This document shows positions 35,464 through 63,645 of a stretch of 64,000 nucleotides of DNA, in pieces. A program made the position numbers and the translations under genes. Source of the DNA: Spirochaetota bacterium (lineage in GTDB: Bacteria; Spirochaetota; Spirochaetia; Treponematales; UBA12059); the NCBI GenBank assembly GCA_029547205.1, contig JAKPPT010000092.1, positions 24,626 through 88,625 on the forward strand, given 5' to 3'. Position 1 is the first letter of the stretch, and each line of letters begins with the position of its first letter. Below the pieces are notes generated by a model that worked only from the letters and a program-made list of their open reading frames with translations, did not search any database and had not been told where the DNA came from.

Positions 35464-37398
35464 CTAGTTTTGCTCTAAAAAATGTTCACGGATAAAAGCA
35501 GCATATGCTGGCAACAACATAAGTTCTTCATGTGTACCAAAGCCGACTACCTTTCCTCTATCCAAGAACAGTATTTTGTCTACATACTGCAGCGTAGAGA
35601 GCCGGTGTGATACAATAATAAATGTCAGATTCTGTGCAAACGCATTGAGTTCATTCATGAGACGCTCTTCGTTTGCTGCATCAAGACTCGCTGTAATATC
35701 ATCAAAAACCATAAGCTCTGGTTTCCTGGCTATTGCGCGAGCTATAGCCATCCGCTGTTTTTGTCCACCAGAAAGACTTAAGCCTCGCTGTCCCACAACG
35801 GTAAGTTCTCTATCGGTAAAGTTAGCGACTTCATCGCTCATCTGGGATATACGTAAGGCTTGATTGAATACCGTGTCGTTCGGTTCATCAATAAAAAAAT
35901 CTATATTTTCCTTAAGCGTTCCAGAAAACAAAAGAGCTTCCTGCGGGACATACCCTATTTTTTTTGCATATGTTTCTGTATCGATTGCATCTAGCGGTAC
36001 GCCATTTATTTTTACCATACCTGAATCTGGAGGCAGCAAGCCGAGCAATACTTTAATGAGCGTCGATTTACCTGAGCCTACTGGACCAATAACCCCAAGT
36101 CGTTCACCCTTTGTTACTCTAAAACTTACCCCATCGAGCGCTTTTTCTACACGCCCCGGATAAGTGAACGATACTTCATTAAAATCGATTGTAGCTATAT
36201 CTATTGCTATTGTTTTCTCCTGAGGTGCGATACCTGGCACCGATACTCCGCCCTGCACCTGGATACCTGGCACCGGAACACTGCCCTCTAGCGGTACGTT
36301 GCCCTGCACCTGGATACCTGGCACCGATACGCCGCCCTGCACATGGATACCTGGCACCGGGTCCTTTTCCGAAGCGCTTTTTCCTGGTACCGGAAAGCTC
36401 GCCATCTCTTCCAGCCTATCAATATTTACAAAAGCTTTTTTGCCATATACGAAGAGCTGTGGTATATCCAGAATTGGATAAATGAGCATCATGAGGTATG
36501 TATAGAACGCATAAAACGTTCCGATGCTTATTTTTCCTCTCACCGCCATTAAGCCGCCGGCAAATACAATACCTACTTGAGCAACGAGGTCAATGTACTG
36601 ATAGATAAGGTGCAGAATCACATCGAGTTTTGCTGCAGTCATTTCGGTTTTCCAGCGTTTTTGCAACACCTCATTAAAAAACCTTCGATATTTATCCTCG
36701 CAGGCATACGCTTTGATAATTCGCACACCCGAAAAGCTCATTTCAAGCTGTTCATTGACCTCACTCACAGCTTTTTCGTTTTTCCTGTAAACATCATATA
36801 CCTTATCAGATGTTACCCAGAAGACTGCCAGCATGAGCGGCAAGGGAATGAGCGAAAAAAGCGTCAGCTTTGGACTAATGAGCATCATTGCAATGAGACA
36901 AAACAGCACTTTACTGATTGATTCCACTGCGCGAAAAATTCCTGAACACAAAAACCACGACAGCTTTGGAAAATCATAGAGATCGCTCGTCAGCCGTGTA
37001 ACAATATCACCCGTAGCAAATTCTGAAAAAAACTTATAATTCTTTTCAAGAATTTTCTTAAAAAATTTCATTCGGAGCAAATGTTCAAAAACAGAGTTTG
37101 TCATGCCACGTATTGCAGGAAAAAATGAGGCAATAAAACCACCAAATCCCACTGCAATTAAAAGCATTAAGAGTCTATCTATTTCCAACATCGGGTCGGT
37201 TGTGCCAGGATGCTCCAAAAGCCGTTGGATAGTATCAAGCAACAATTTAGAAATATATGGAAGCAACACCGCCACCGCACTCGAAATTAATGTGAGTACA
37301 AATAATAGTGCTACAAGTCCTTTTTTCTCACTCCAGAGTTTTCTAATCCAGGCAATATGATTAATGTTCAGCTGTTTGTAGTGTATTGTATCTGACAT
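35464..37398 (-). CDS. ABC exporter, fused permease/ATPase (MsbA-type), with repeat-derived linker insert
   Basis: Six-TM domain, then GPVGSGKST, LSGGQKQR and LMVFDD. ATG 37398 is preceded by GGAGGAGGAG. The linker carries VPGIHVQGGVSVPGIQVQG... repeats. Confidence 0.9.
   Translation of the reverse strand: MSDTIHYKQLNINHIAWIRKLWSEKKGLVALLFVLTLISSAVAVLLPYISKLLLDTIQRLLEHPGTTDPMLEIDRLLMLLIAVGFGGFIASFFPAIRGMTNSVFEHLLRMKFFKKILEKNYKFFSEFATGDIVTRLTSDLYDFPKLSWFLCSGIFRAVESISKVLFCLIAMMLISPKLTLFSLIPLPLMLAVFWVTSDKVYDVYRKNEKAVSEVNEQLEMSFSGVRIIKAYACEDKYRRFFNEVLQKRWKTEMTAAKLDVILHLIYQYIDLVAQVGIVFAGGLMAVRGKISIGTFYAFYTYLMMLIYPILDIPQLFVYGKKAFVNIDRLEEMASFPVPGKSASEKDPVPGIHVQGGVSVPGIQVQGNVPLEGSVPVPGIQVQGGVSVPGIAPQEKTIAIDIATIDFNEVSFTYPGRVEKALDGVSFRVTKGERLGVIGPVGSGKSTLIKVLLGLLPPDSGMVKINGVPLDAIDTETYAKKIGYVPQEALLFSGTLKENIDFFIDEPNDTVFNQALRISQMSDEVANFTDRELTVVGQRGLSLSGGQKQRMAIARAIARKPELMVFDDITASLDAANEERLMNELNAFAQNLTFIIVSHRLSTLQYVDKILFLDRGKVVGFGTHEELMLLPAYAAFIREHFLEQN
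36229..36393. repeat. In-CDS copies of GATACCTGGCACC (4 exact, 1 degenerate)
   Basis: Copies start at 36229, 36262, 36313 and 36346. Spacings are 33, 51 and 33 nt, all multiples of 3. Confidence 0.9.
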
Positions 37399-37421
37399 AG
37401 TCTCCTCCTCCCCTATAAAGC

Positions 37422-39215
37422 TCACGTTGCCTCATCAAGTTCTGCATCTGCAGAAAGATCAGGGAATTGCAGACGGACCAGTTCTTCATACTCAGAATAC
37501 TCTGCAAGCAACTCATGATGCTTTCCTCGTGCTGCTATTCTGCCATTTTTGAAAAAAAGAATTTCATCAGCAGTAAGTATTGAAGAAAGCCTGTGCGCCA
37601 CAATGATAGCCGTTCTACCTTTAAGAAGATCTTTCATGCTCCGTTGAATTTTCTTTTCTGTAACTACATCAACACTTGCGGTTGCTTCATCCATAATGAT
37701 AATATCCGCATTAAAAACAACCGCTCGTGCAAATGAAATGAGCTGCTTTTCACCCATCGATAGATTGCCACCTCGTTCTGCAAGTTCAGTGTACGCACCA
37801 TGAGGTAGCCGCCGAACAAAATCATCAGCATGAACCGTTTCCAATGCTTTGAAAACATCGAGTTCGGTAAACTTATCATTATATACGCGTACATTTTCAA
37901 GGACTGTCCCCGGGAATAAATATATATCCTGCAACACAAGTCCAATATGTTTCCGCCATTCATGTAAATCAAGTGATTCCAATCGTACGCCATCAACAAG
38001 AATCTCACCACTCGTATATGGGTAAAACCTGCAGAGGAGGCTTACAGTTGTTGTTTTACCGGAACCAGAAGGACCAACAAGTGCAATGGTCTGTCCCTTT
38101 TTTACAGTAAATGAGACATGATCAAGCACCGGTTCGCCTTCTTTATAAGCAAAGGAAACATCACGGAACTCAATTGCATGCTTAAATTCAGGTTTGTTTG
38201 TAGGCGTTGCCACTGCTTCTTCAGGTTCAAGGCTCATAATCGAAAAAATACGTTCCATTGCAACGCGAGCCTGCTGAATACTCCGTACATTTTCCCCAAT
38301 TGCAAACAAAGGTTCAAACAACCGCATCCCATATTCAATGAAAACCAAGAGTGTCCCTACGGTTAAAACTCCTTTAAAGATTTGCGGCGCTGTTAATTTA
38401 ATGATGAGTGTAAGAAACAGCGGCCCAGCTAAAAATTGCAGCCCGCCCATAAAGATATACTCGATAAGACCAGCCCGAATCTCGATATCACGTTTTTCTT
38501 TACTTACTTTTTCTAGCTTGGAAACAGCCTTCTCTGTTTTTTTAAACACCTGGAGAACTTCTATACCCTGCACAAACTCTGTCACCACAGCACACACTTC
38601 TGCATACTTTTTTCTCGCTTTTTCATAAAGTGGCCTCAATTTATCAAAAACAAGTAAAAATGCAGCGAGTAAAAACGGTATCGGAATAAAAATAATGCCA
38701 GCAAGTTTTGCATCAATAGTAATGAAAACAATAAACATTCCAATAAAATAGATAATATTGGTGATGAGCATGATTGCAGTTTCGCTAAAAAGCTGTTTAA
38801 CCCGCTCAGTATCATTTTCCACACGAGCCATAAGCTCGCCAACCTGATGCTTATCAAAATATGCAACAGGTAGAGTAACCATGTGTGCAAACAGATCTGA
38901 TTTTATATTTGTCACAACATTTAGTCCCAGACGAACCATAAGCATGCTTTCGAAGTATGTGATAACACCCATAAAAATCACGAGAGCAAAATAGAGAAAC
39001 GCATACTGCAGCATGAGACTAACATCTTTTTGTGGAATAGCCTTATCGATAATTGCCCGGAGAATGAGCGGACCTGCCAGTCTAGAAGCAGTCACCGCCA
39101 GGAGTGCTAGCAAACCCAGAGCAAACAGAAACCAATACGGCTTGAAATATGAAAAAAATCGCTTGAACACCAGCCTCTTGCTGATATTTGTGTTTTGAAC
39201 TTGTGCTTCTGACAT
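37422..39215 (-). CDS. ABC exporter, fused permease/ATPase (MsbA-type)
   Basis: GPSGSGKTT, LSMGEKQL and IIIMDEATA. I prefer ATG 39215 (MSEAQVQNT, preceded by GGAGA). The track's N-terminal 59 aa are read through repeat DNA. Confidence 0.85.
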   Translation of the reverse strand: MSEAQVQNTNISKRLVFKRFFSYFKPYWFLFALGLLALLAVTASRLAGPLILRAIIDKAIPQKDVSLMLQYAFLYFALVIFMGVITYFESMLMVRLGLNVVTNIKSDLFAHMVTLPVAYFDKHQVGELMARVENDTERVKQLFSETAIMLITNIIYFIGMFIVFITIDAKLAGIIFIPIPFLLAAFLLVFDKLRPLYEKARKKYAEVCAVVTEFVQGIEVLQVFKKTEKAVSKLEKVSKEKRDIEIRAGLIEYIFMGGLQFLAGPLFLTLIIKLTAPQIFKGVLTVGTLLVFIEYGMRLFEPLFAIGENVRSIQQARVAMERIFSIMSLEPEEAVATPTNKPEFKHAIEFRDVSFAYKEGEPVLDHVSFTVKKGQTIALVGPSGSGKTTTVSLLCRFYPYTSGEILVDGVRLESLDLHEWRKHIGLVLQDIYLFPGTVLENVRVYNDKFTELDVFKALETVHADDFVRRLPHGAYTELAERGGNLSMGEKQLISFARAVVFNADIIIMDEATASVDVVTEKKIQRSMKDLLKGRTAIIVAHRLSSILTADEILFFKNGRIAARGKHHELLAEYSEYEELVRLQFPDLSADAELDEAT

Positions 39216-39392
39216 ATCTTGTCTCCAAACCTGCATACGATGCGGCACAATGCGGTAATCGGCATATCTTGTCTCCAAACCTGCATACGATGCGGCACAA
39301 TGCGGTAATCGGTACCAGGTATCCAATGCATGCTGTAATTCTGTACCAGGTATTGTGCAGTACCAGGTGCCAGGTTTTCTTAAATCTAGCAT
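39213..39392. repeat. 50-bp tandem duplication (x2) followed by four degenerate core-motif copies
   Basis: Unit catatcttgtctccaaacctgcatacgatgcggcacaatgcggtaatcgg at 39213-39262 and 39263-39312. It is followed by GGTACCAGGTATC, TGTACCAGGTATT and AGTACCAGGTGCCAGGTTTTC. Confidence 0.85.
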
Positions 39393-42631: not shown

Positions 42632-44086
42632 ATGAATAACGATCAGCAACAAAACATTTCTACTCCAAGTCAAACTATACTCAAACACAACAAATTCTGG
42701 CTTACAGTAGAAGGCGCTGCATCATCTGTATATCTCATTTTAACACAGGGTGCTCTTTTTACTGCTATTGCGATCTATTTCAAACTTACGACATTCTGGC
42801 TTTCTGTTACCACTGCATTTCCACTTGTGTTCCAGGTATTCCAGCTTATTGCTCCAACCATTATTAAACGGTCAAAAAACAGAGTAAGGCTGATGATTAT
42901 TTTCAATGCTGGCCGATTCATCTGGTTTATTCCGCTTGCAACTTCGCTCTTTGGCTTTTCATCTGCCTTAGAATTCATTGTGATTTTTGCAGTGAGCCAG
43001 CTCGCAAACGCTCTTGCTGGCAATGTGTGGGTGGGATTAAGCCGGGACCTCATTCCAGAACACGAACGCGGAAAATTTCTTGGGAGAAGAAATGTTGCAA
43101 TCAGCATTACCACAATGATTTCGACATATATCTATACTGCTATTCTCGATATACTCAGCAAACCTTTATCCATCATTATAACTATACTCATTGGCATGAT
43201 TGCTACAATCATTTCAATCATTGCCACGTTCCCAATTCGAGATATCAGTCTCCAGGAAATCAGCCAACAAAGCACAGGAAACCTGGCACCAGGAACAACA
43301 TTCGAAGAAAAATCGGCTGGAAACCTGGCACCAGGAACAAATAAACAAAAAACAGATTCTATAAAATCAAACTTGGTTTATTTATTTAGCTACAACAAGC
43401 AGTTGCTCCAGGATAGCAACATCAAACGATTTGTAATTGCAATGTTCGCGTGGAACTTTATTCTTCAACTAACTGCTCCGTTTTTTGCATATCACCAGAT
43501 CACCAATCTTTCTATGTCGATGCGATTGATCGGAATTACTTCCATCCTTACGAGTCTTCTTTCCATAATTTTTTACAGGATTTGGGGTGTTTTAGGTGAT
43601 AAACTTGGCCATAAATCAGTATTGGTGACAGGTATCAATATCGTTAGCCTTATCCCTATGCTATGGTTCTTTATGGGAAAACCGCTTTGGCCATACATGA
43701 TGGGTGTTGATGTACTCTTAACCGGACTTGGATGGTCAGCTATCGATCTTGGCATTTTAACCTTTGGAATGGAAATCGGTGGTAAAAACTCCAGTGCATG
43801 CTTTGCTCTCGCTAATGCAGGAGCGGGCATCAGCGGACTCGCTGGAGCTGTAGTAGGAGGCTTCCTGGGACAAAAACTTAAGCCAATAAACCTGACACTC
43901 TGGTCTTTCGAAATCAATGGTCTTCAATTTTTATTTCTTGTTGGTGGACTTTTACGGTTTTTAGGTCTTGCTCTCTTCAAAAAAGTACAGGCAGCTAACT
44001 ATGCAAAACCAGGTGTCATGGTTACGAATGTGCTTTCAATTATTGCACGACGCTTTGCAATCCGTCCCGCTGAACTTGATGAGTAA
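42632..44086 (+). CDS. MFS transporter with repeat-derived central-loop insert
   Basis: 484 aa with multiple TM helices. The central loop contains GNLAPGT twice. Confidence 0.7.
   Translation: MNNDQQQNISTPSQTILKHNKFWLTVEGAASSVYLILTQGALFTAIAIYFKLTTFWLSVTTAFPLVFQVFQLIAPTIIKRSKNRVRLMIIFNAGRFIWFIPLATSLFGFSSALEFIVIFAVSQLANALAGNVWVGLSRDLIPEHERGKFLGRRNVAISITTMISTYIYTAILDILSKPLSIIITILIGMIATIISIIATFPIRDISLQEISQQSTGNLAPGTTFEEKSAGNLAPGTNKQKTDSIKSNLVYLFSYNKQLLQDSNIKRFVIAMFAWNFILQLTAPFFAYHQITNLSMSMRLIGITSILTSLLSIIFYRIWGVLGDKLGHKSVLVTGINIVSLIPMLWFFMGKPLWPYMMGVDVLLTGLGWSAIDLGILTFGMEIGGKNSSACFALANAGAGISGLAGAVVGGFLGQKLKPINLTLWSFEINGLQFLFLVGGLLRFLGLALFKKVQAANYAKPGVMVTNVLSIIARRFAIRPAELDE
43277..43340. repeat. 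Two in-CDS copies of GGAAACCTGGCACCAGGAACAA
   Basis: Identical 22-mers at 43277 and 43319, 42 nt apart. They contain the perfect palindrome CCTGGCACCAGG. Confidence 0.9.
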
Positions 44087-44230: not shown

Positions 44231-45193
44231 ATGTCAGATATACAAAACACTCATGCAGAAGACGAAATTTCTCTCATTGATCTTATAGCAGTAATGCTTA
44301 AATACCGATGGCTTATTATCGGGCTAACCTGTGCAAGTATAGTTATCACCACATTAGCATATTTCATTCTTCCAGCACTAAAAACAAGCGAGATATCAAC
44401 GAACAATGCAACTGCAGCAGTTTTGTCACCTTATGAAACAGTAACAACGCTATCATTCACACCAGGTATTGAATTATTAGTTCAATATAGTAATCTTCAC
44501 TATTTTACTATAACTACATTATCAAATCCTCTTACAATTGACACAGCACTCACTGCAGCGCATTTAGACTTTGGTTTTCTCAGCCGTTCTCCTGATGAAA
44601 GGCTTGCAACAATACGGCAAGAACTAAAAAAGACAAAACCTGCTGATGCGGTAAATTCCTGGAGCGCAGAATTGACCTTTAAAGATTACAAAGCGACCGT
44701 ATTAAATGGCATAATTACACTTACTATAAAAAGCCCTGATAAGGAGAAAAATGAAAAGTTCATCGATGCAACTATTCGTTCCTTAAACGAAACTCTTAAA
44801 CAATATCTTATAGCGCCAGCAAGCGCACTATTAACGCAAGGAATTAGCACAAACCAGAAAAATTCTTTTGCAGAACTCGATGCAGCAAAGCTGAATCAAC
44901 AGCGTTCTTTAGCAAATGCTATAGTTAACCGTTCATTTAATCCAGTTGTCAAACTCATGAGCTATACGCTTCAGGAGCAAAAGGATATACAACAGGAAAT
45001 ACAACAGGAAATACAACAGAAAATACAGATAAAAAATCAAATAAAAAAATATGGTACAATTGGTACTATTGGTATGTTATTTTTAAGTATCATGCTTGCA
45101 TTTATTCTGCAATGGATAAATTCTATAAAAAATGACCCAGAAGCTATGCAAAAAATTACAGCAGCTCTAGGGAAAAATAAAACACAGAAATGA
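44231..45193 (+). CDS. Wzz-like polysaccharide chain-length determinant
   Basis: N-terminal EDEISLIDLIAVMLKYRWLII TM helix, a periplasmic coiled coil, and a C-terminal TM helix. Internal QQEIQQEIQQKIQ repeat. Confidence 0.6.
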   Translation: MSDIQNTHAEDEISLIDLIAVMLKYRWLIIGLTCASIVITTLAYFILPALKTSEISTNNATAAVLSPYETVTTLSFTPGIELLVQYSNLHYFTITTLSNPLTIDTALTAAHLDFGFLSRSPDERLATIRQELKKTKPADAVNSWSAELTFKDYKATVLNGIITLTIKSPDKEKNEKFIDATIRSLNETLKQYLIAPASALLTQGISTNQKNSFAELDAAKLNQQRSLANAIVNRSFNPVVKLMSYTLQEQKDIQQEIQQEIQQKIQIKNQIKKYGTIGTIGMLFLSIMLAFILQWINSIKNDPEAMQKITAALGKNKTQK

Positions 45194-45331: not shown

Positions 45332-46906
45332 ATGCAGCTGGAAATACAGGAAGTAAACAGGCAGGTCCTCGAGCTCGTCTATCCAGAATTAAAGTATGGA
45401 GAAGATCCGGATATTGAGCGCTATTTTGATTACCGAAGTCAGGGGCGCATGTTCGATGCTCTCGTCATCTATCAATCAAAATTAAAACCTCGTTATCCTG
45501 ATGATGCAAAACGTATAGAATTGCTATCGTTATATAGAAAAAAATCACCATTATTTTCACAGTATCTCTATGAACTACTAAGTGAGCGTGCAGATAGTAT
45601 CATAAAACAACTTAAAATCAATCTCGACACGATGCTCATGCCAATAGAAAATATATCACTCAAAAATACATATCGTGTATTAAAAGCTGTTGAAACAATT
45701 GCGCGTTTATTGCCTGAAAATAACGAACAGGCTTTGAATATGCTATCTTTTTATGAAACTGTTTCGCAGACTTTGCAATACCGTTATAAAGAGTTTAAAA
45801 AACTCAGCGAACTACTTACCGACTTTTATGAGCAGACAGCAATTAAGGAATTGGAAGCGTTTGATTTTCTTTCATTAAATGAATCTGCGCTATTAGAACA
45901 AAAACGCCGCGAAGAAGAATATCGCAAACACGAAAATTATTTTGATATTAGCAAAATCGAGTTTGATGAAACTGACAAACAGGCGATAGAAATTTCTCCC
46001 CGACTCGAGCGCAATGAAGATAAAGTTCTAGCATTCTGTTACAAATACTGGTTACGAATTGATGATGCTGCTTTTGAAAGAATCGTGTTCCTCTATTCAC
46101 AAAAATATCATTCAAAACATTACGATATTTTTCGCACCATCAAATTCTGTAGAAAACGAAAATATTCCGATGATGATATACTCACCATGGTCGCTACTGC
46201 CTTATCCACAGATTATTCATACACAGTTCAAGGCGATATTTACATGCAGGAAACCTGGCGACGGCTCAAGGCTAGTCTGTATGGAACAGGAAAATTAAAT
46301 GCAACAGTACCTGTCACCACTCAAAGTAAATTACCCGGCACCAATCAAAACAAATCAGGTTCCGCACTCAATCACAAAAAAAGTTCTGCCCACCTGCGTA
46401 CAGAGAAACCTTTATCCAGAAAAACTGTTCCTGTACTTAAACCAATAGAAAAAGCTGTCCCTAAAAATAAAACAAACAACGAAGCCCAATCTCTAGCCAA
46501 AGAGCTAGAACAGAGAAGAAAACTGCTGACCAGGCCAGTTTCATCAACAAAACAAGACACAGTCCATCTCATCTACACAGGATCAATTTCAGACAAAGTC
46601 AGAAAAATTTCCGGACGTTCGTACGATGTGTTTCAGGATCTCTTTTTTTCAAAAGTCCGAACCTTTATACAAGACGCACTTCATAAAGCGCGAATACCTG
46701 GCTCAAAAGTGCCAGGAGATAAGCTTAACATGGCAGAAGATCTCGTTTACGCCTGTATGAAAAAAAACTATCTAAACACCTACTTTGACTGGCCAAATTC
46801 TCATGAGTATAGGCAGCTTAAAGAATATGGATTTGACTTACAAACACTCGATGGCATCATAGAGCACTGCATGCTTCAAATCCTCGAAAAAGAACAAGTT
46901 ATTTAG
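45332..46906 (+). CDS. Hypothetical protein (524 aa)
   Basis: Long ORF with a basic C-terminal half. No domain recognised. Confidence 0.5.
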   Translation: MQLEIQEVNRQVLELVYPELKYGEDPDIERYFDYRSQGRMFDALVIYQSKLKPRYPDDAKRIELLSLYRKKSPLFSQYLYELLSERADSIIKQLKINLDTMLMPIENISLKNTYRVLKAVETIARLLPENNEQALNMLSFYETVSQTLQYRYKEFKKLSELLTDFYEQTAIKELEAFDFLSLNESALLEQKRREEEYRKHENYFDISKIEFDETDKQAIEISPRLERNEDKVLAFCYKYWLRIDDAAFERIVFLYSQKYHSKHYDIFRTIKFCRKRKYSDDDILTMVATALSTDYSYTVQGDIYMQETWRRLKASLYGTGKLNATVPVTTQSKLPGTNQNKSGSALNHKKSSAHLRTEKPLSRKTVPVLKPIEKAVPKNKTNNEAQSLAKELEQRRKLLTRPVSSTKQDTVHLIYTGSISDKVRKISGRSYDVFQDLFFSKVRTFIQDALHKARIPGSKVPGDKLNMAEDLVYACMKKNYLNTYFDWPNSHEYRQLKEYGFDLQTLDGIIEHCMLQILEKEQVI

Positions 46907-47026: not shown

Positions 47027-48715
47027 CTAAACATCAAGCTTTTTAAGCCGCTTTTCAGCAAATGGCATAAACACAATCAGCATCACTACGGAAAGAAAAA
47101 TTGGTATAATAGCTGTAAAAACAAATAACTCTGTTATAGTTTTAATATATGTAATACTAAAATAACCAACAACTCCCAGTATCACCATTTCTGCAAGAAT
47201 TACAATGACTGCATTGATATTTTGCTTCATTGCTGCAACTGGAGTTTCCCACTTTAATCGCGGATTAATTGTATCTACAATAAGACCTGCGATATTGAGC
47301 ATAACCGCAATAGAAAAACCTATTACCATAGCAAGCAAGAGTTCACTCACTCGCATCTTAAATAAAAAAACACCCAGGAGCACACTCATCGCTATACCTA
47401 AAAATCCAAAAATACACCCATGAATGAGCTTGGCTGCTAAATATGCTTTTCCGCTTATGGGAAGACTCTTCATAAATGAAAGCTGTTTTGCATCACGAGA
47501 TATCGATGTGCAGGTAATACTCGTCGCGGAACCTAAAAAAGCACCAATGAGACTCACCAGCACTACTCTGATTATTGGTGTTATTGATGAAACAAGTTCG
47601 GTTATTTCTTGTGCAGAACTCTTATTGTTTGACAAATTAAAATAAAAACTGATTCCTAAAATAAGTGGCATAAGAATAATGATAAAAGGACCATTTAAGA
47701 AGTAAACAGGTTCCCTATTCATGAGCCGTATTTCTCTCAATACCAGCGATACAATTTTTGGATTTTGTTGAGTTTCTTTTCCCAACAGAATCTTTGCCTG
47801 CTTTTTATCAAGCTTCTTAATATAGTTTTCAGAAAAATTCCGTACCACATATCGATAGAGCGGTGCCATGAGTTCAAAAATCAAATACACCAGACCAAGT
47901 ATCGCTATCAGTAAAGCTGTTAGTGCAATCACGTAGATTGGCTTTTGTGGTTCTAAAAGTGTTGCTAAAATGAATTGGAATACAGGATTTTTATTATATA
48001 GCTGCAAAAATCCCTGATTACTGCCCTCAAGTAGCTTCATGAGAGCTTCTGGTGACGAAGCCATAGCCATGATTCTATTTGTTGTAGCATTGAAAAACAG
48101 CATAAAACCTATTGCTATAAGGCCTACAAGAATCATGACCATATCACGGTTTCTAAAAAACTTGCTAATCGATAACAACGGCAGGCCAATGATATAACCC
48201 AATGCGGTTGCAACAACAGTAATAATAAGGATAAGCAGCACCGCATTGATCAAAAACATAACCGATGAGTGTTCAAAATACCAATAGATACCAAGGCCAC
48301 TCCCTATGATGAGCAGTGCCAATCCGAATTGAGCAAAAGCAATTGTACTTGCTTTTGCAGAAAGGATATAGGAAGTTCGTAGGGGTAACGTTGTGATATA
48401 TATTTCCATATCATTCGAATAAATAGTGGAAATAGCTGTCAAAACACAAAGAATCGTAATAGCTACTGCTCCATACAGCAGTGCATACATGATGAGTAGC
48501 TTTTGAATACCAACTGATGCAAAGAGACTATACATTGAGTAATAAACTTCCCAGGCCAAAAAACCAAACGATGCTAAAACATACAAAACTAAAAACAAAA
48601 TGCCCAATAGTTTTGCAATACTCTTGAAGCTTATCTTATCATTGTTGTCTTTAATTTCTGGTAGCGCATAAAAACTTTTGAAATAGAATCGTATTGTAGA
48701 AAATATTTTTTTCAT
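47027..48715 (-). CDS. ABC-2-type exporter permease (multi-TM)
   Basis: 562 aa with more than 10 predicted TM helices. 4-nt overlap with the ATPase gene. Confidence 0.65.
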   Translation of the reverse strand: MKKIFSTIRFYFKSFYALPEIKDNNDKISFKSIAKLLGILFLVLYVLASFGFLAWEVYYSMYSLFASVGIQKLLIMYALLYGAVAITILCVLTAISTIYSNDMEIYITTLPLRTSYILSAKASTIAFAQFGLALLIIGSGLGIYWYFEHSSVMFLINAVLLILIITVVATALGYIIGLPLLSISKFFRNRDMVMILVGLIAIGFMLFFNATTNRIMAMASSPEALMKLLEGSNQGFLQLYNKNPVFQFILATLLEPQKPIYVIALTALLIAILGLVYLIFELMAPLYRYVVRNFSENYIKKLDKKQAKILLGKETQQNPKIVSLVLREIRLMNREPVYFLNGPFIIILMPLILGISFYFNLSNNKSSAQEITELVSSITPIIRVVLVSLIGAFLGSATSITCTSISRDAKQLSFMKSLPISGKAYLAAKLIHGCIFGFLGIAMSVLLGVFLFKMRVSELLLAMVIGFSIAVMLNIAGLIVDTINPRLKWETPVAAMKQNINAVIVILAEMVILGVVGYFSITYIKTITELFVFTAIIPIFLSVVMLIVFMPFAEKRLKKLDV

Positions 48716-49452
48716 GAAACCTGCTCCTTATCATCCACAAGTTCCAAAAATAGATTTTCAAGTGACGTATCTTTTCCTTTAAGTTCACGAAGCTCATCAA
48801 GCGAACCGGTGAATAGTATCTTCCCCTTATTGATAATAGCAAGCTTATCGCATACCCGCTCTGCAACCTCCATTACATGCGTCGAAAAGAAAACACACTT
48901 ACCGGCATTAGCACGTTCCCGCATGAGCTCTTTGAGCTTAAATGCCGCATGCGGATCAAGCCCAACCATCGGTTCATCGAGAAGCCAATTTTGCGGATCT
49001 GGAAGCAAACTTCCCGCAATAATAAGCTTTTGCTTCATACCGCGAGAATAACTTGCTATTTTAGCATTGAGCACATCTGCAATTTCGAATATCGTCGTGT
49101 ACCGTTCTATCGCAGCATACCTGGCACCTTTGCCTAAATCATAAACATCTGCGATAAAATTGAGATATTCAATACCTTTTAACCGGCTAAACAACTCAGG
49201 ATTATCTGGTACAAACCCTATAGCATGTTTCGCCTTCAAATCATCGGAGATGGTAGAATGACCATTGACAAGAACCGTACCCTCATCCGCTTGCAGCGAG
49301 CCGGTTATTAATTTAAGCGTTGTTGTTTTTCCAGCTCCATTTGGCCCCAAAAAACCAAAAATACAGCCATCAGGTACTGTAAGGCTAATAGCATCAAGCG
49401 CTTTTGTTTTTGCTCGGTTATACGTCTTGCTCACCGCATTAATCTCAATCAT
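48712..49452 (-). CDS. ABC transporter ATP-binding protein
   Basis: GPNGAGKTT, YSRGMKQKL and WLLDEP. Confidence 0.9.
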   Translation of the reverse strand: MIEINAVSKTYNRAKTKALDAISLTVPDGCIFGFLGPNGAGKTTTLKLITGSLQADEGTVLVNGHSTISDDLKAKHAIGFVPDNPELFSRLKGIEYLNFIADVYDLGKGARYAAIERYTTIFEIADVLNAKIASYSRGMKQKLIIAGSLLPDPQNWLLDEPMVGLDPHAAFKLKELMRERANAGKCVFFSTHVMEVAERVCDKLAIINKGKILFTGSLDELRELKGKDTSLENLFLELVDDKEQVS

Positions 49453-49476: not shown

Positions 49477-49727
49477 GAAACCTGGCACCGCAATCTATCG
49501 ATACCTGGCACTGCAAAGTTCAAATCAGTCCAAAGGGAACCCTGACACCGCTTGCACAGCCAGAACGCGCCCGCTGACTGAAACATGGGGAAACCTGGCA
49601 CCGCAGACACTTTCCGCAGGCACTTTAGGAAACCAAGGGCTCGCTTTTGATACCTGGCACCTAACTGGCTAATGGCTCATGGCTTGTTATACCTGGCACC
49701 TAACTGGCTACTGGCTCATGGCTTGTT
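49477..49727. repeat. Intergenic repeat cluster A (~6 copies, CCTGGCACC orientation)
   Basis: GAAACCTGGCACCGC appears twice and GATACCTGGCACTGC once. A 39-bp unit, ATACCTGGCACCTAACTGGCTA(A/C)TGGCTCATGGCTTGTT, appears twice. Confidence 0.9.
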
Positions 49728-50700: not shown

Positions 50701-52563
50701 TTATTCCTCCGTCAATCGAGTTCCCCTGAATACCTTTTCAACTATTTGCGCAGGACTTTCAGTTGTACCAGAATCTTCTATCTCATGAGATTCTTGACTA
50801 TGCTCGGTTGAATTTTGCACAACATATGCATGTATTTGAATAACTCGATTAAACACTTTTTGTAAAATAGGATTGATTACCGAACTTTCTGCATTAATTT
50901 TATCTGCCTCAAAATTTGAAACACAGGATACTTCTAACCTGTCACCCTTTATCGACCAATCTTCTGTTCTGGAAAGAATCGCATTAAGCATCAAATTTTG
51001 CTTACCCAGTGCAGTAATTACCCTCTCCTTTTCAGCTATTGCAGTATCAGTAGCAGAATCTGACTGTTCAGAAATATAACCACTGGAATCTACACTTTTG
51101 CCGCGAGAAACCGCGATTGAAACTGCGCCGATGCCTGGTTTAACTGCACTGGTGCCAGGTTTCCCATCACCGATGCCAGGTTTAGTTGCGCTAGCAGTGC
51201 TAACTGTACTGGTACCAGGTTTTGAATCGACTGCTGATGCACCTCGGCTACTACCCACCATGTTGGCCTCGCTGGCCAGTTCAACGGTGCCAGGTTTAGT
51301 TGCGCTGGAAACTGCGCTGGTGCCAGGTTTCCCATCAGGTTTATTTGATTTATCCACTGAAGAAGCTTGAGAACTCAATGAGATTAGTTTTTCTGCAATT
51401 CCACTTGCGTTTTGAGTATTCCCTTCACTAAGAGCATGTTTCAAATTGGTTAAGATTTCAAAAATCTCAGAACGTGAAATAAGCGCTCGTATTTCACAGA
51501 GCATTACCAATGCAAGTTCTATTTCATATCGGGGGTTAACGCTGTACCGCATGTTTCTATAGATATCAAGAAGCACAGCAAGCATCCGTTCCAGGTGTCG
51601 TGTTTCGAGCGCTGACACTTGTTCCGGCACTGATTCTTTTGAAAACCCTAAAAGTTCCTGTTTCTCGACACCAGCTTTTATAAAAAGGAGCGTACGAACA
51701 TATTGAATAGTATCAACTAAGAGCTGCTCAATTGAAACACCTGAAGATACAATTGATTCAACAAGTTCGATTGTTTTAGCCTTATCTCCTTGTGCTACCG
51801 TGCTTATCAGCATACCAATTCGTTCAGAACCGACAATACCTAGTTTATCCTGAATTACCGACAGCCTGATATGTCCCTCAGAAAATGAAGCCACTTGATC
51901 AAACATGGTATACGCATCGCGGAGAGAACCAGTTGCCTCTCGCGCTATCCACATGAGCGCATCATCATCAGCCACAATACCTAAATCCTGCGCTGCCGAT
52001 GCAAGCCTTTCCTTAATAACAGCAAGCGGAATCAATCTAAAAACAAATTGCTGACACCGGCTGCGGATGGTAGCTGGTACCTTATGCAGTTCAGTCGTTG
52101 CAAATATAAAAACAATATATGGCGGAGGTTCTTCGATAGTTTTCAACAGTGCATTAAAGGCACTGTTAGAGAGCATGTGTACTTCATCAATAATGTAGAT
52201 TTTATATTTAGAGAAGTTAGGCGGGAAAAGCACCTCATCTTTAATTTGACGTACATTATCAACTGACGTGTTGGACGCACCATCAATTTCAATAACATCC
52301 AATGACGCACCTTTGGTGATAGCATGACACGAATTGCATACCCCGCATGGTTCTGCGGTTGGCCCTCGTTCACAATTGAGAGATTTTGCAAGTATTCGTG
52401 CTGTACTTGTTTTACCGCAACCTCGAGGACCAGAGAAAAGATATGCATGCGCTATCCTTCCCGATTCTATTGAAGCCTTGAGCGTAATCGAAACAAAATC
52501 CTGTCCCGCCAGCTCATCAAAATTCTGAGGCCGCTTGCGGTTTGCTGTCACTTCATACGCCAT
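50701..52563 (-). CDS. dnaX: DNA polymerase III subunit gamma/tau, with repeat-derived insert
   Basis: GPRGCGKTS, zinc module CERGPTAEPCGVCNSC, and DEVHML. The variable region carries KPGT repeats. Confidence 0.93.
   Translation of the reverse strand: MAYEVTANRKRPQNFDELAGQDFVSITLKASIESGRIAHAYLFSGPRGCGKTSTARILAKSLNCERGPTAEPCGVCNSCHAITKGASLDVIEIDGASNTSVDNVRQIKDEVLFPPNFSKYKIYIIDEVHMLSNSAFNALLKTIEEPPPYIVFIFATTELHKVPATIRSRCQQFVFRLIPLAVIKERLASAAQDLGIVADDDALMWIAREATGSLRDAYTMFDQVASFSEGHIRLSVIQDKLGIVGSERIGMLISTVAQGDKAKTIELVESIVSSGVSIEQLLVDTIQYVRTLLFIKAGVEKQELLGFSKESVPEQVSALETRHLERMLAVLLDIYRNMRYSVNPRYEIELALVMLCEIRALISRSEIFEILTNLKHALSEGNTQNASGIAEKLISLSSQASSVDKSNKPDGKPGTSAVSSATKPGTVELASEANMVGSSRGASAVDSKPGTSTVSTASATKPGIGDGKPGTSAVKPGIGAVSIAVSRGKSVDSSGYISEQSDSATDTAIAEKERVITALGKQNLMLNAILSRTEDWSIKGDRLEVSCVSNFEADKINAESSVINPILQKVFNRVIQIHAYVVQNSTEHSQESHEIEDSGTTESPAQIVEKVFRGTRLTEE
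51130..51331. repeat. Six in-CDS motif copies inside dnaX
   Basis: GATGCCTGGTTTA 51130, GGTGCCAGGTTTC 51151, GATGCCAGGTTTA 51172, GGTACCAGGTTTT 51211, GGTGCCAGGTTTA 51286, GGTGCCAGGTTTC 51319. Confidence 0.9.
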
Positions 52564-52579
52564 GCGTTTAGCATATCAT

Positions 52580-53070
52580 GGTGCCAGGTTTATAGTAAAC
52601 TAGGCAACAGGTTATTGTTATTTTTGTTTTTTTGGTACCAGGTATCAGATTTTGTTTGCTGCGCCAAGCCATTGGCGAAAACCTTCGGTGCCAGGAAAAC
52701 CTTCGGTGCCAGGTATCTAATAGCTGAATGTTTCATGAAAACCATTGGTGCCAGGTAATACATGGCCAAGTCTTTGAGAAGATTTTAGGTGTCAAGTTTC
52801 CCTAGCATATAGGTTTATGATAACATTTTCCCAGCATGCAAATGCACATGGCCAAGTATGCGGTGCCAGGTTTCTGATAGTTAAGTATACGGTGCCAGGT
52901 TTCTGATAGCTACCAGGTTTCTGATAGCTATAGCTAAGTATAGCTAAGTATGCGGTGCCAGGTTTCTGATAGCTAAAATATTGGATTTATGACACGTTTT
53001 ATTGACTACACGTAATCCGACAAGCAGTCCGGTGCCAGGTATCTCTAGATACGGTGCCAGGTATCTCTAG
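52580..53070. repeat. Intergenic repeat cluster B (~12 copies, GGTGCCAGG orientation)
   Basis: Begins 17 nt upstream of the dnaX ATG. Includes local tandems such as CGGTGCCAGGTTTCTGATAGCTA and CGGTGCCAGGTATCTCTAGATA (x2). Confidence 0.9.
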
Positions 53071-53630: not shown

Positions 53631-54173
53631 TTATGTTGCAATAACTGAACTAAAGTCATAGTTTTCTTGAGAAAATTTTTCATATAGATTTTTAATTTCA
53701 TCGCTTATCCAATTTAAAAATATTTTAAAGCCCTTTTTAAAAAATAACAAACCACTCCAAAACCACTCGTCTGGCCTTTTTACCATTTTTGCTTTCACAG
53801 GATTTAAAATTATATATTTCAAAACACGTTCTACATCCTGTATTCTCATCAACGGCTCTGAAAAATATCTACCAGCCCAAAAATGTCCTACTAAATCGTT
53901 AATTGCATTAAATTTCTTTGCAAACGTTACTAAAAGCCTTTGCATTATCTTAGGAAGCTCCTTACAATCCCTTGGTTTAATAAGCAGATGAATATGATTA
54001 TCCATTAAAGTAAAACCTTCTACATTAAACTGATACTCTTTTTGCAACTTTTTTAATATTTTCATAAACATCTTTTTTAGACCAGAACGTTGCAGAAAGT
54101 AAGTTTGATAATTCGTTCGCGCTGTAATATGATACGTTGCCCCTGGAATTAGCAATCTCGGTTTTCTTGGCAT
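53631..54173 (-). CDS. rayT: REP-associated tyrosine transposase (RAYT; IS200/IS605-like Y1 HUH family)
   Basis: 180 aa. YHITARTN, HUH motif DNHIHLLIKP, GHFWAGRYFSEP, and the catalytic-Tyr motif KYIILNPVKAKMV. Single gene with no IS ends or tnpB. Visibly more AT-rich than its neighbours. Confidence 0.8.
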   Translation of the reverse strand: MPRKPRLLIPGATYHITARTNYQTYFLQRSGLKKMFMKILKKLQKEYQFNVEGFTLMDNHIHLLIKPRDCKELPKIMQRLLVTFAKKFNAINDLVGHFWAGRYFSEPLMRIQDVERVLKYIILNPVKAKMVKRPDEWFWSGLLFFKKGFKIFLNWISDEIKNLYEKFSQENYDFSSVIAT

Positions 54174-54307: not shown

Positions 54308-54469
54308 GAAACCTGACACCATAAATCCAGAAACCTGACACCATAATTTTTTAAGTTCTAGTTTTGGTGGCAGGTTTCTAATTTTCTACAAGAAGTGCGC
54401 TTATTGGTGCTTGTGAAGCATTTAGCTGTGATTCGTACCATGTTTCCATGTTTCTCGGTGCCAGGTTTC
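54308..54469. repeat. Repeat cluster C upstream of RAYT (2 copies in each orientation)
   Basis: GAAACCTGACACC at 54308 and 54330. GGTGGCAGGTTTC at 54366 and GGTGCCAGGTTTC at 54457. Confidence 0.85.
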
Positions 54470-57797: not shown

Positions 57798-59221
57798 AAT
57801 TAGCAACTCACTAGCGCCTCGCAGAAACCAAAACCTGGCACCTTTCTCCCCATTCTCTCAGATCCAACGAAACATGGCACCCTTTGGCCCTCCGCAACCG
57901 GGGACCCTTTATTGAGAAACCTGACACCGTTCTCCCCATTCTCTCAGACCCAACGAAACATGGCACCGTTCTCGCAGACCTCGCCGAAGAGCTGCGCCTA
58001 TCAAACCGAAACCTGGCACCATTCCCGCAAACCTAAAACCTGGAACCTGGAAACCTGGCACCGATCTCGCAGTTCTCAAAACCTGGAAACCTGGCACCGT
58101 TCTCGCAAACCTAAAACCTGGAACCTGGAAACCTGGCACCGATCTCGCAGTCCTCGCCGAAGAGCTGCGCCCATCAAACCGAAACCTGGCACCGTTCTCG
58201 CAGACCTCGCCTGGAAACCTGGCACCTTTCTCCCCATTCTCTCAGACCCAACGAAACCTGACACCTTTCTCGCAGTCCTCGCCGATTAAGAGCCGCGCCC
58301 ATCAAACCGAAACCTGAGGAAACCAACCTGGAAACCTGGCGCCCTTTATTGGGAAACCTGGCACCGTTCTCGTAGTCCCGATTCGAAACCTGGCACCCTT
58401 TGGCCCTCTGCAAATTAGCAACTCACTAGCGCCTCGCAGAAACCAAAACCTGGAAACCTGGAACCAAATGAAACATGGAAAGCAACCTGGAACCCGGAAA
58501 CCTGGAAACCAACCTGGAACCCGGAAACCTGGCACCAAATACTTTGAGACGCCCACCGCAACATGGGACCCCTTATTGAGAAACCTGGCACCTTTCTCCC
58601 CGTTCTCTCAGACCCAACGAAACCTGGCACCCTTTGGCCCTCTGCAACCTGGGACCCGGAAACCTGGAAACCTGGCGCCCTTTATTGGGAAACCTGGCAC
58701 CGTTCTCGTAGTCCCGATTCGAAACCTGGCACCATTCCCGCAGACATCGCCGATTAAGAGCTGCGCCCATCAAACCGAAACCTGGCACCCTTTGGCCCTC
58801 CGCAACCTGGCGCCCTTTATTGAGAAACCTGGCACCGTTCTCGCAGACATCGCCGATTAAGAGCTGCGCCTATCAAACCGAAACCTGACACCATGGCACT
58901 TGATTTCTTTCAAACCGAAACCTGGCACCGTTCTCGCAGTCCCGATTCGAAAACCTGGCACCGTTCTCGCAGTCCCGATTCGAAAACCTGGCACCGTTCT
59001 CGCAGTCCTCGCCGAAGAGCTGCACCCATCAAACCGAAACATGGAACCTGGCACCCTTTGGCCCTCCGCAACCTGGGACCCCTTATTGAGAAACCTGGCA
59101 CCGTTCTCGCAGTCCCGATTCGAAACCTGACACCATGGCACTTGATTTCTTTCAAACCGAAACCTGGCACCACGGCACTTCAGGCACTTATTTCTTAAGG
59201 CACCATGGCACTTGATTTCTT
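57798..59221. repeat. ~1.4 kb single-orientation array of GAAACCTGGCACC modules (about 30-35 copies by hand count)
   Basis: Every module starts with the core and carries one of about four tail types. Includes a 33-bp tandem (x3) at ~58915-59013. A higher-order repeat, AAATTAGCAACTCACTAGCGCCTCGCAGAAACCAAAACCTGG, occurs at 57798 and 58413. Confidence 0.95.
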
Positions 59222-61162: not shown

Positions 61163-61580
61163 GGTGCCAGGTTTCAAAATAGCCATTTGGTGCCAGGTTT
61201 CGTTCCAAGTGCAGATATAGAGAAAAACCGGTGCCAGGTATCGCTATAAATCCCAAAGTCTGTGACAAGCAAGAAGGCCGGTGCCAGGTTTCCCATTTGT
61301 GTCATTTGGAGGTGCCAGGTATCCCCACTGGTACCCTACAGCTTCAACAAAAGTTAGCAATGGAGCGATTGGTGCCAGGTATCCCCACTGGTACCCCACA
61401 GCTTCAACAAAAGTTAGCAATGGAGCGATTGGTGCCAGGTATCAGTATGGGATTGGTGCCAGGTATCGCTATACCAGGTTTCCCATTTGTGTCATTTGGA
61501 GGTGCCAGGTATCCCCACTGGTGCCCCACAGCTTCAACAAAAGTTAGCAATGGAGCGATTGGTGCCAGGTATCAGTATGG
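61163..61580. repeat. Intergenic repeat cluster F (~11 copies, GGTGCCAGG orientation) with 60-bp tandem units
   Basis: The 60-bp unit GGTGCCAGGTATCCCCACTGGTACCC(T/C)ACAGCTTCAACAAAAGTTAGCAATGGAGCGATT occurs at 61311, 61371 and 61501. Confidence 0.92.
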
Positions 61581-61625: not shown

Positions 61626-62798
61626 ATGAAATTTGCCTCAAGAATATTGCACCCTGCGGTATATATTTGCTGGTTTCTGGTTTTAGTTTTCTCAGCTTGC
61701 AAACAAGCAGAAACCACCACAAAACCTCCGAATCCTCATGAATCGGTCAAATTTTCTGTGACACTATCAAAAACAGAACCTGAAATTGTCTATTTTGATG
61801 CAGACAGGCCACTCAACGAAGCTTTTTCTCTTACGAAACCTGGCACCAAAGCGTTATTACCTTATCCACTCCAAAAGCGGCCTGCGCTTTTTGTTCCGTT
61901 GGACAAATCCTCAATACTTCTCTTAGTTAACAAAGTAGGCTTTGTTCAACTCACTTTTACAGCAAACGCAGATGTATCTACAACGATACAATTTGATTCT
62001 CCAGTCTCTGTTGAAGGTGTACCAGTAAACCAGTACTCTGCAGGTTCAGTTTGGCAAACGAATAATCACCAATATCTACTATTGTATAAAGATCATGTAC
62101 TCGACACTGACTGGGCAGCAACAGTTTTATTTGAATTTTCTGGTGACACTGTCTCACGGATAGAAATCCCACCACATCCTGAAAATAAACGCTATGAACC
62201 GTACTGGATTTTCCCAACAAGCGAAAACACCTGGCTTATCCAATATCGTTACATAATTGGAGACCGATCGTATACAACATATGCTTCATGGGACCGTAAA
62301 CACAATAAACTTTCGGAGCTCACACGCACCTCTTTTGAACGCCAACTCACTCCAATCACCTTTGAAAAAGCTCCTGCACCCATTCGTCTCATAGCTGAAC
62401 ATATATCAGAACCCGTTCTATTAGAGTACCGTGATAGCAATGGAGCCATTCATTATATCAATAACAAAAATCTCGATGATGCTGTTCTTGGCATCGCAGA
62501 AACCAACAATTACGGCACTTTTGTCCTTCTGGAAGATGGCCGATACTGGATCGCTCGGGGACAGGTACCACCATCAGTTTCTTCATCTGAAAATCAAACA
62601 ATCACTCCGAAACAACAGCAATCAGCAATATCCTTTTCAGGAACACCACCAGTGACTATAGGGCAGGCTACTGTACCTGTTGATGATGTTCATTTTAGAA
62701 ATGCAATATTGACTGATACCGTGTTTATCAGCACCTGGGAAGAAAATGGTTTTCCAGAGACGGGAATGAGCGGTCTCTTTCTTTTTCAGCTTCCGTAA
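61626..62798 (+). CDS. Hypothetical lipoprotein
   Basis: 390 aa with a lipobox-like LVFSAC. Contains one exact motif copy at 61835-61847, read as KPGT. Confidence 0.55.
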   Translation: MKFASRILHPAVYICWFLVLVFSACKQAETTTKPPNPHESVKFSVTLSKTEPEIVYFDADRPLNEAFSLTKPGTKALLPYPLQKRPALFVPLDKSSILLLVNKVGFVQLTFTANADVSTTIQFDSPVSVEGVPVNQYSAGSVWQTNNHQYLLLYKDHVLDTDWAATVLFEFSGDTVSRIEIPPHPENKRYEPYWIFPTSENTWLIQYRYIIGDRSYTTYASWDRKHNKLSELTRTSFERQLTPITFEKAPAPIRLIAEHISEPVLLEYRDSNGAIHYINNKNLDDAVLGIAETNNYGTFVLLEDGRYWIARGQVPPSVSSSENQTITPKQQQSAISFSGTPPVTIGQATVPVDDVHFRNAILTDTVFISTWEENGFPETGMSGLFLFQLP

Positions 62799-62868: not shown

Positions 62869-63645
62869 ATGAAATATCGGTGCCAGGTATCAAAAAAGGT
62901 TTTCCGTTTATCAAAACATGCAATCAAAAAATATTTGTGCATCCTTGCTATTTTTTTAACATCGTATTCCGTTTTTGCCTTTGATATTACTCATGCAGGC
63001 GGATCACTCGGTGTGCTCATCATCAATAATACGGTTCCCGAATCAGCACCGAACCCGGTTGTAAATACCATTGGTGGATTTGCCAATTTTACATTTACTT
63101 CGGTGCCAGGTTTCGCCCCTGGTTCTTCGGTGCCAGGTTTCGCCCCTGGTTTTTTCCTCTCAACAGCTCTCGACATACTCTGGCTCAATTATGAAAACCG
63201 AGACGGTATTGCTGTGCCTACAGAAACAGAAACTGGTAACGGCAATAACGTTTTTGTTATCGGTTTACTGCTCGATGTACCGTTAGGATATGTATTTTAT
63301 TTTGGACCGCCTGTTACCGAATCATTACCGCATCGATTTTCAGCTACCTTACTTGCAGGCACATCTTTTTTATTTCGTATCTGCATGAATGGTGATACAA
63401 CCGAAGCTTATGCAAGCGTGATGGAACAAAACCGCATTGCTGTTGCCCAGTACCTCTGGGGGAATGGTAGGTGGTTTTATCCAATGATAAGCGGGAAATT
63501 CGGTATTGTGCTTCAAGAAACGTTTACATTCACAGTAGGCGCAAAGTGGTACATCCCCATATTCAATCTTTGGACAACCGATGATAATTCATTTTTCAAT
63601 GCAAGTATGCTGGCAATTCAGCTTGCAATGCAAATTTCCCTGTAA
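62869..63645 (+). CDS. Hypothetical exported/OM protein with repeat-derived segments
   Basis: 258 aa with a hydrophobic N-terminus. Motif copies at codons 3-8 (YRCQVS) and in SVPGFAPGSSVPGFAPG. Confidence 0.5.
   Translation: MKYRCQVSKKVFRLSKHAIKKYLCILAIFLTSYSVFAFDITHAGGSLGVLIINNTVPESAPNPVVNTIGGFANFTFTSVPGFAPGSSVPGFAPGFFLSTALDILWLNYENRDGIAVPTETETGNGNNVFVIGLLLDVPLGYVFYFGPPVTESLPHRFSATLLAGTSFLFRICMNGDTTEAYASVMEQNRIAVAQYLWGNGRWFYPMISGKFGIVLQETFTFTVGAKWYIPIFNLWTTDDNSFFNASMLAIQLAMQISL
63099..63149. repeat. Two in-CDS copies of TTCGGTGCCAGGTTTCGCCCCTGG
   Basis: Copies at 63099-63122 and 63126-63149, 27 nt apart. Their 22-mer core is identical to the intergenic copy at 55894-55915. Confidence 0.9.

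Follow-up and report, generated by a model that had tools for sequence, protein, structure and literature searches.

Two identical 22-mers stand 42 nt apart within a gene for a transporter of the major facilitator superfamily (MFS) in a 64,000-nt stretch of a Spirochaetota genome (GenBank assembly GCA_029547205.1, contig JAKPPT010000092.1, positions 24,626 to 88,625; hereafter the window), and they raise the question of how a repeated element comes to be written into a coding sequence. A first-pass annotation, made from the nucleotide sequence, had viewed the pair as a palindromic element inserted in the central loop of the transporter. We find here that both copies belong to a numerous family whose conserved unit is a non-palindromic word of 13 bp, that a shorter allele of the transporter gene is best read as a deletion between the 22-mers, and that a single-copy gene for a REP-associated tyrosine transposase (RAYT; REP, repetitive extragenic palindromic sequence) lies in the middle of the field of word copies. 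Taken together, the 13-bp word, the deletion in the MFS gene and a RAYT-linked field form the overall explanation that we favour on balance, if modestly.

The 22-mer pair and its place in the transporter

The 22-mer GGAAACCTGGCACCAGGAACAA occurs in exactly two copies, both exact, as the first-pass annotation had recorded (Table 1). No third match was found in the window even when 3 mismatches were allowed, and dinucleotide shuffling yielded matches in 0 of 100 replicates. Both copies are read in the frame originally proposed, as GNLAPGT. The 12-mer CCTGGCACCAGG that they contain was then taken for a palindrome, which it is not: its reverse complement, CCTGGTGCCAGG, differs, and it consists of an interrupted inverted repeat, CCTGG and CCAGG (5+5), around a non-palindromic CA. 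The AGG that completes the inverted repeat is peculiar to the two MFS copies, where it follows the 13-bp word described below, and is no general trait of the family. Because each 22-mer holds this interrupted inverted repeat, the pair can form a hairpin with a 12-bp stem when folded as single-stranded DNA (z = -3.4 for one strand and -4.8 for the other), and such a hairpin may favour slippage. Tandem Repeats Finder gives no report of the pair because just 22 of the 42 nt are repeated.

The encoded protein has the architecture of its class, namely 12 transmembrane (TM) helices in two six-helix halves, according to the Pfam MFS_1 match, the hydropathy profile and an AlphaFold2 model. Hydropathy places six segments before residue ~205 and six after ~265. 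The model, built with 12 homologues (mean predicted local distance difference test score, pLDDT, 79.9; predicted template modelling score, pTM, 0.77), also has 12 TM helices, with TM6 ending near residue 199, helices resuming from 244 or 262 and TM7 starting near 262. Residues 208-244 have a pLDDT <50 and are without secondary structure, and the GNLAPGT region is the sole strongly length-variable part of the homologue alignment, in which the homologues are without GNLAPGT. Both copies are hence predicted to lie in the disordered central loop between TM6 and TM7, presumably on the cytoplasmic side given the architecture of the family. The loop position suggested by the first-pass annotation is thereby borne out: the comparison of topology and orthologues that it had called for was run, and the segment does not fall in a conserved TM helix.

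Two alleles of the MFS gene and the direction of change

Population-level presence or absence of the 42-nt unit, raised at the outset as a point to examine, does exist between strains. The closest database protein (P0001, 470 aa) equals the window protein minus exactly 14 residues. At the DNA level, the short allele has one 22-mer and lacks 42 nt, all other bases being identical over 300 nt, and it was found in 3 independent assemblies, namely an NCBI metagenome-assembled genome (MAG) labelled 'Spirochaetales bacterium', one ENA assembly and one Logan assembly. The two-copy allele is not an assembly artefact, since the identical 484-aa protein is encoded on at least 23 contigs from JGI, NCBI and ENA assemblies.

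A simple 42-nt tandem duplication is out, as the spacer is not repeated after copy 2; nor is the long allele a simple duplicate of the short one, from which the 20-nt spacer is missing. The one-copy allele could instead represent an empty, ancestral site, with the 42-nt unit as a mobile module that had recently inserted at an existing word. The word-spacer-word layout of the long allele is what would be expected of a module pasted at a word, and module-wise insertions do occur in the array near 58 kb and in the linker of an ABC transporter (see below). However, the repeated part is 22 nt and not the 13 nt of the family, and the spacer is found nowhere else in the window, with no other partial matches. 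The length of the long allele moreover matches that of the orthologues in a sister species (484 vs 482, 476 and 482 aa), and AAACCTGACCACAGAAACCA-ACTCGAA of the sister species can be aligned with copy 1 and the beginning of the spacer, with agreement at 22 of 28 positions, a score equalled in 4 of 1000 shuffles. Finally, the long allele is present in both sub-lineages defined by single-nucleotide polymorphisms (SNPs), whereas the short allele is nested in one of them because its SNPs, 44486G and 39621C, are common to the long-allele strain L130. We regard a recent insertion as unlikely.

The 470-aa allele is best read, with good support from the sequence comparisons, as the product of a deletion between the 22-mers rather than as the empty site. 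The insertion assumed by the first-pass annotation thus gives way to another order of events, in keeping with a loop as long as that of the sister species (484 vs 482 aa), a homologous proto-copy there that aligns with copy 1, and a short allele that arose later. Copy 1 would have formed in place from a related ancestral sequence. Copy 2, at a site where the sister species has the non-word sequence CCAAATTCTATGCCAGCAGCA, would be a local 22-nt copy of copy 1 that overwrote adjacent loop codons. The direct 22-mer repeats would then have allowed, by slippage or recombination, the 42-nt in-frame deletion seen as the minority 470-aa allele. Two points weigh against this account: the spacer alone has no significant alignment with the sister species, its homology being weak, and the evidence that copy 2 arose by local copying, a step that we nevertheless consider to have good support, is indirect. 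For the transporter, the outcome is a benign 14-residue length polymorphism in which only the sequence and length of the loop are altered.

A 13-bp word concentrated in 27 kb

The first-pass annotation had also proposed that one and the same element is used in several reading frames. Several frames are indeed in use (KPGT, VPG, NLAP and GARY), but the element that these sites share is neither the 22-mer nor the 12-mer. Alignment of all copies delimits a conserved, non-palindromic unit of 13 bp, GA(A/T)ACCTG(G)CACC, outside of which the information content is at most 0.4 bit at every position of the ±25-nt flanks. Its core ACCTGGCACC occurs 64 times in the window (36 on the forward strand, 28 on the reverse) and is by far the most frequent 10-mer. 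Allowing any base at the sixth position (ACCTGNCACC) raises the count to 75 copies, which we assign to dialects according to that base (64 G, 4 T, 6 A and 1 C). The word contains no stop codon in any frame.

Nearly all of these copies (73 of 75) are located within about 27 kb (36.2-63.2 kb). The first 35 kb of the window contain 3 near-copies, and the 10 kb past either window end, available from longer contigs of the same species, contain zero and one. Over the 84 kb of this genome thus covered (the window plus 10 kb on each side), the word is ~100 times commoner in the 27-kb stretch (73 copies) than in the surrounding 57 kb (3 copies). While 19 copies are in genes, the 56 others lie in intergenic DNA, which totals 9.4 kb, or 5.9 kb if only the stretch from 36.2 to 63.2 kb is counted; in that stretch their density is ~9.5 per kb of intergenic DNA. 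Neighbouring pairs are direct in 76 of 77 cases, the single inverted pair being near the RAYT gene, and spacings are irregular, from 22 to 139 nt. About three quarters of the copies make up direct arrays of shuffled modules between genes. In the large arrays (at 49.5, 52.6-53.1, 57.8-59.2 and 61.2-61.6 kb), a small set of spacer modules recurs in mosaic fashion, with the word at the boundaries of each.

An Rfam scan gave matches for a signal recognition particle (SRP) RNA and a tRNA only, and no family on the word arrays. Among the matches listed by a scan of genome contigs for word pairs, which came from unrelated, mostly high-GC genomes, none had the full 13-mer. A scan of metagenomes returned 27 stretches, of which only one (L142) is from this organism, and it covers the same region.

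Within genes, the word is read as KPGT in dnaX (three copies), in the open reading frame (ORF) 61626..62798 and at the possible N-terminus of an ABC transporter; as NLAP in the MFS gene (two copies); as VPGI or VPGF in the ABC transporter 35464..37425 (four copies), ORF 62869..63645 (two copies) and ORF 10091..10963; and as GARY in the ABC ATPase 48712..49452. The coding copies lie mostly in unconstrained places and linkers, translated in whichever frame is open. In contrast with the MFS loop, where codons appear to have been replaced, sequence comparison indicates net insertions of the word in two linkers. The ABC transporter linker comprises four VPGI units of 11 residues in the window and five in some strains; the sister species has FPVPGASS-GVG at this place and none of the word copies. 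In DnaX, the linker exceeds that of the sister species by 39 aa. A 27-nt tandem unit accompanying the two VPGF copies of ORF 62869..63645 is likewise absent from the sister species.

Table 1. Coordinates in the window of the 22-mer pair, of the word copies and arrays, and of the genes that carry or accompany them
Feature	Position	Strand	Remarks
MFS transporter gene, carries both 22-mers	42632..44086	+	484 aa; Pfam MFS_1, E = 1e-19
22-mer copy 1, 13-bp word at 43278-43290	43277..43298	+	GNLAPGT, aa 216-222
20-nt spacer CATTCGAAGAAAAATCGGCT	43299..43318	+	spacer plus one 22-mer make up the 42-nt unit missing from the 470-aa allele
22-mer copy 2, 13-bp word at 43320-43332	43319..43340	+	GNLAPGT, aa 230-236; start-to-start distance from copy 1, 42 nt
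T-dialect copy GATACCTGTCACC in the same MFS gene, conserved TM helix	43624..43636	-	read VTGI; kept in both species
Four word copies in units of 33/51 nt	36229..36361	+	antisense to ABC transporter 35464..37425 (-); VPGI repeats in the membrane-ATPase domain linker
Intergenic array, four perfect copies	49477..49700	+	149-nt unit delimited by near-copy GATACCTGGCACT (49500) and a perfect copy (49649)
Three word copies in the dnaX C-terminal (tau) linker	51151..51331	-	KPGT; dnaX 50701..52563 (-)
Intergenic array upstream of dnaX	52580..53065	-	8 copies
RAYT gene, single copy	53631..54173	-	180 aa; NCBIfam NF047646, 87 bits vs cutoff 80
Extragenic group of four word copies 5' of the RAYT gene	54308..54469		include the only inverted pair of the field
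Non-coding mosaic array, 1.4 kb	57830..59171	+	26 copies (22 perfect G-type, 4 A-type) with few kinds of spacer module between them
Array downstream of pspA	61163..61573	-	10 copies
Word copies in two ORFs	61835-61847, 62879-63141		frame reading: KPGT (IPVT in sister), VPGF (two copies)

Length variation between strains at word copies

Strains that are 99.8-100% identical over 16-21 kb were compared, and four of the five resolved length differences between them begin and end at word copies (42, 33, 149 and 78 nt). Besides the 42-nt unit of the MFS gene, these are a 33-nt unit of the ABC transporter linker, present once more in other strains; the 149-nt unit at 49.5 kb, bounded exactly by GATACCTGGCAC and duplicated in other strains; and a two-module insertion of 78 nt at 58127, within the 1.4-kb array, which is polymorphic. 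The fifth difference concerns a 16-nt tandem unit unrelated to the word, located downstream of pspA (61089-61122; 61093), with two units here and one in L142 and L166. There is good support for word copies as a general source of in-frame or module-sized length changes between strains, and such variants could be of use in typing.

The word repeat also systematically breaks short-read MAG assemblies: gaps of 100 N are found at or inside word arrays at 13300-13399 of L001, at ~6.0 kb of L165 (window position 58920), at 16990-17089 of L126 and at 14048-14147 of L158. Two further N-runs occur in L158, at 4769-4868 and 19351-19450, and strain L130 has an extra 3-nt gap besides the five resolved differences.

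A concerted one-base difference from a sister species

Three contigs (L123, L124 and L158, the last from assembly GCA_964630305.1), syntenic with the window at ~81-86% DNA identity, represent the sister species referred to above. The word is found there at the same intergenic loci, in fewer copies and mostly as GATACCTGTCACC, with 21 T-type vs 6 G-type copies in 20 kb. Where flanks can be aligned, G in the window corresponds to T in the sister at no fewer than 9 orthologous sites, and these include coding sites (GARY/GDRY and KPGT/IPVT) as well as a copy 17 nt upstream of the dnaX start codon. The T-type copies common to both species are in conserved coding DNA; at the one that lies in a TM helix of the MFS protein, the G dialect would introduce a Pro. 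The MFS loop of the sister species has a word copy of its own at a different place and in the opposite orientation (VPGF), and contigs carrying more distant MFS orthologues (L161-L164), all short, have no word copy. For many separate sites to change in concert, some trans-acting recognition step is required. A bias of Dcm/Vsr repair at CCWGG was rejected by reasoning, as variation falls on the final G of CCTGG and a G to T change is not a deamination product.

One candidate for such a step is biased DNA uptake, with the word acting as an uptake signal of the kind known as DUS (DNA uptake sequence) in Neisseriaceae or USS (uptake signal sequence) in Pasteurellaceae, built by point mutation and biased uptake and recombination wherever tolerated. 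Uptake signals of this kind are spread fairly evenly, at ~1 per kb, and are not known to form dense direct arrays. The word resembles them in being a sharp motif, in the 10-13-bp range, without flank conservation, in its use of both orientations, in its in-place origin without length change in the MFS loop, and in its occupation of tolerant protein segments in several frames; the species-specific dialects at orthologous sites, G in the window and T in the sister, also have their counterpart in DUS dialects (PMC3630211). Transformation of Treponema pallidum is reported in two abstracts, one of which names natural competence explicitly. However, the spread over the 84 kb is far from even, with 57 kb nearly devoid of a word that clumps in direct arrays of up to 26 copies in 1.4 kb, and no competence genes were seen in the window or elsewhere in these 84 kb. 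We consider an uptake signal quite improbable.

The word could also be the recognition site of a host DNA-binding protein, such as a nucleoid or segregation factor, in which case selection on binding would maintain the sites and these would track the specificity of the protein. The sharp information content over 13 bp, the regional concentration, the concerted change of dialect and the presence of arrays, despite unalignable flanks, at intergenic loci common to the two species would all fit such a protein. A ybaB/ebfC gene is located inside the field, and the T dialect contains GTCAC, which presumably matches the GTnAC motif of Borrelia EbfC. The G dialect, however, is without GTnAC, the word is asymmetric yet used in both orientations, and sites in coding loops together with copy numbers that vary between near-identical strains argue against a tuned function. 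A binding site as the prime cause of the field seems to us doubtful, at the level of the recent insertion in the MFS gene.

A RAYT gene in the middle of the field

The single-copy RAYT gene retains an intact HUH motif (HIH) and an intact catalytic-tyrosine motif (YIILNP). In the database, it matches one identical cluster (100%) and a sister-species protein at 83% identity; all other hits reach no more than 42%. In its 5' extragenic space, the inverted word pair at 54330-54342 (+) and 54366-54378 (-) can form a hairpin with a 13-14-bp stem (single-strand fold z = -4.1), and among ten segments submitted to the fold test only this pair and the MFS pair beat their shuffles. The sister species is without the inverted pair and has smaller arrays. 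Its RAYT gene (L158, 10001-10543) is full length and 83% identical, with one in-frame TGA (codon 102, AGA to TGA; GHFWAGRYFS), and the same truncated protein was found on 5 contigs from at least three samples.

REPs and the mosaic elements that they form (bacterial interspersed mosaic elements, BIMEs), together with their RAYTs (REPtrons; REPINs), offer the closest parallel. The word field shares with these systems an over-represented short repeat that is mostly extragenic and clustered (PMC3733652, PMC5581495, PMC3116915), here with as many as 26 copies per array, a RAYT-type Y1 transposase gene in single copy with the repeat in its flanking extragenic space, and a hairpin-forming inverted doublet beside that gene. 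Occasional copies in ORFs are a further likeness, REPs inside ORFs, notably of replication and repair genes, having been catalogued (PMC3733652). It differs in several respects. A REP forms a hairpin from an imperfect palindrome of 20-40 bp, whereas conservation is here confined to 13 non-palindromic bp. A REP bears a GTAG or CGTC tetranucleotide at one end (PMC3733652), whereas the word starts with GA(A/T)A and ends with CACC, with no conserved flank positions. As far as sampled, moreover, copies cluster within ~18 kb of the RAYT gene, and orthologous copies differ between sister species by a concerted one-base dialect. In REPtrons, the commonest oligomers of a genome lie in the extragenic DNA that flanks the RAYT gene, typically as inverted doublets on either side; in the 84-kb sample, four copies, including the sole inverted doublet, are 5' of the gene and none is 3'.

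Two other repeat systems offer partial parallels. The Neisseria intergenic mosaic elements (NIME) are built of modules (RS) bounded by a constant short repeat, dRS3, and thus resemble the intergenic mosaics of a few variable modules described here; dRS3 is, however, a 20-bp inverted repeat, while the word is asymmetric and also enters coding DNA. The palindromic elements of Rickettsia are insertions of 100-150 bp, against a unit of 13 bp here, which moreover replaced codons of the MFS gene rather than adding to them. Like the word, they form a repeat family translated inside functional genes, at surface or linker positions (cited in PMC3733652).

The word family is best seen as an atypical, probably RAYT-linked repeat. 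That the word is the working unit of this HUH/Y1 enzyme, which would bind and cleave it, is a prediction from motif and position that we put forward tentatively, as plausible but short of probable. The word would be recognised by the RAYT, possibly by way of the one word-on-word hairpin, which adjoins its gene; single-strand cleavage and rejoining, mostly near that gene, would add, remove and shuffle word-bounded modules, and the same action would keep word copies uniform. Such activity would explain the local concentration of the word, its module-wise variation, the concerted G-to-T dialect difference at the same sites in the sister species, and the fact that arrays are larger where the RAYT gene is intact. 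A bolder version, which we rate as possible though on the unlikely side, would make the RAYT a domesticated transposase acting as a local, sequence-homogenising editor of the chromosome. Its substrate would be the 13-bp non-palindromic word in place of a REP hairpin, and mainly in the neighbourhood of its own gene it would paste, delete or overwrite patches bounded by the word, also within essential genes, dnaX among them, and transporter genes. All copies would be kept in line with its specificity, a change of which would rewrite the same sites, from G type to T type, in a sister species.

Several observations weigh against a role of the RAYT. No word copy was found in the 3' flank of its gene, and the array segments have no excess of single-strand structure (z from -0.9 to +2.3). 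The word itself falls outside the REP definition, being non-palindromic and without a GTAG or CGTC tag, in arrays that are direct rather than alternating. The loci of two distant RAYT homologues (L169 and L170) contain no comparable word field, and the sister species keeps its 21 perfect T-type copies despite the stop codon in its RAYT gene. Known RAYT/IS200 chemistry gives no simple account of a same-site switch from G to T. Lastly, with 84 kb covered, the apparently local concentration may be just one of several such fields.

Whatever the agent, this locus presents a short repeat that overwrites coding sequence where it stands, uses four or more reading frames and is limited only by the tolerance of the protein, a T-type copy surviving unchanged in a TM helix where the G type would add a proline. 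Should the trans-acting step be the neighbouring RAYT, the substrate rules of domesticated transposases, a poorly understood group, would become directly readable from sequence, and RAYT substrates would extend beyond palindromic REPs.

Neighbouring features

Between the array upstream of dnaX and the RAYT gene are encoded a bacterial small SRP RNA (53177-53275, -) and a tRNA-Ser(GGA) (53360-53449, -). About 3-8 kb past the right window end, contig L165 (13791-18295) carries genes for a hybrid histidine kinase and for a response regulator dependent on sigma-54. TGGCAC, the -24 hexamer of sigma-54 promoters, forms part of the word, but no -12 box accompanies the copies. A sigma-54 promoter (-24 TGGCAC, -12 TTGC) was tried as an identity for the word and rejected: GG-N10-GC spacing is found in 13 of 64 copies and TTGC in none, and the T dialect is without the GG.

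ORF 45332..46906 holds two copies of a 24-nt repeat, TACCCGGCACCAATCAAAACAAAT (46308-46355, ..LPGTNQNK..), which contains a degenerate copy of the word and is adjoined by a T-type copy at 46306-46318. In strain L130, ORF 44231..45193 has lost its ATG through a SNP (A to C at 44231), and the gene is called 21 residues shorter.

A gene for an H+-translocating pyrophosphatase (19574-21711, -) is broken by a frameshift and an in-frame TGA (ASFV*TFFVRGKPGT), and represents either a pseudogene or a consensus error. Just past this TGA, a one-mismatch copy of the word, GAAACCTGGTACC (20765-20777), encodes KPGT. TGA otherwise serves as a stop codon here, in 6 of 37 long ORFs.

Finally, a perfect tandem duplication of 2 x 50 nt (39213-39312) is located at the 5' end of the ABC transporter gene 37422..39392. 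As the sister orthologue is 59 aa shorter, the true start of this gene is probably near 39215, with the duplication in its leader.

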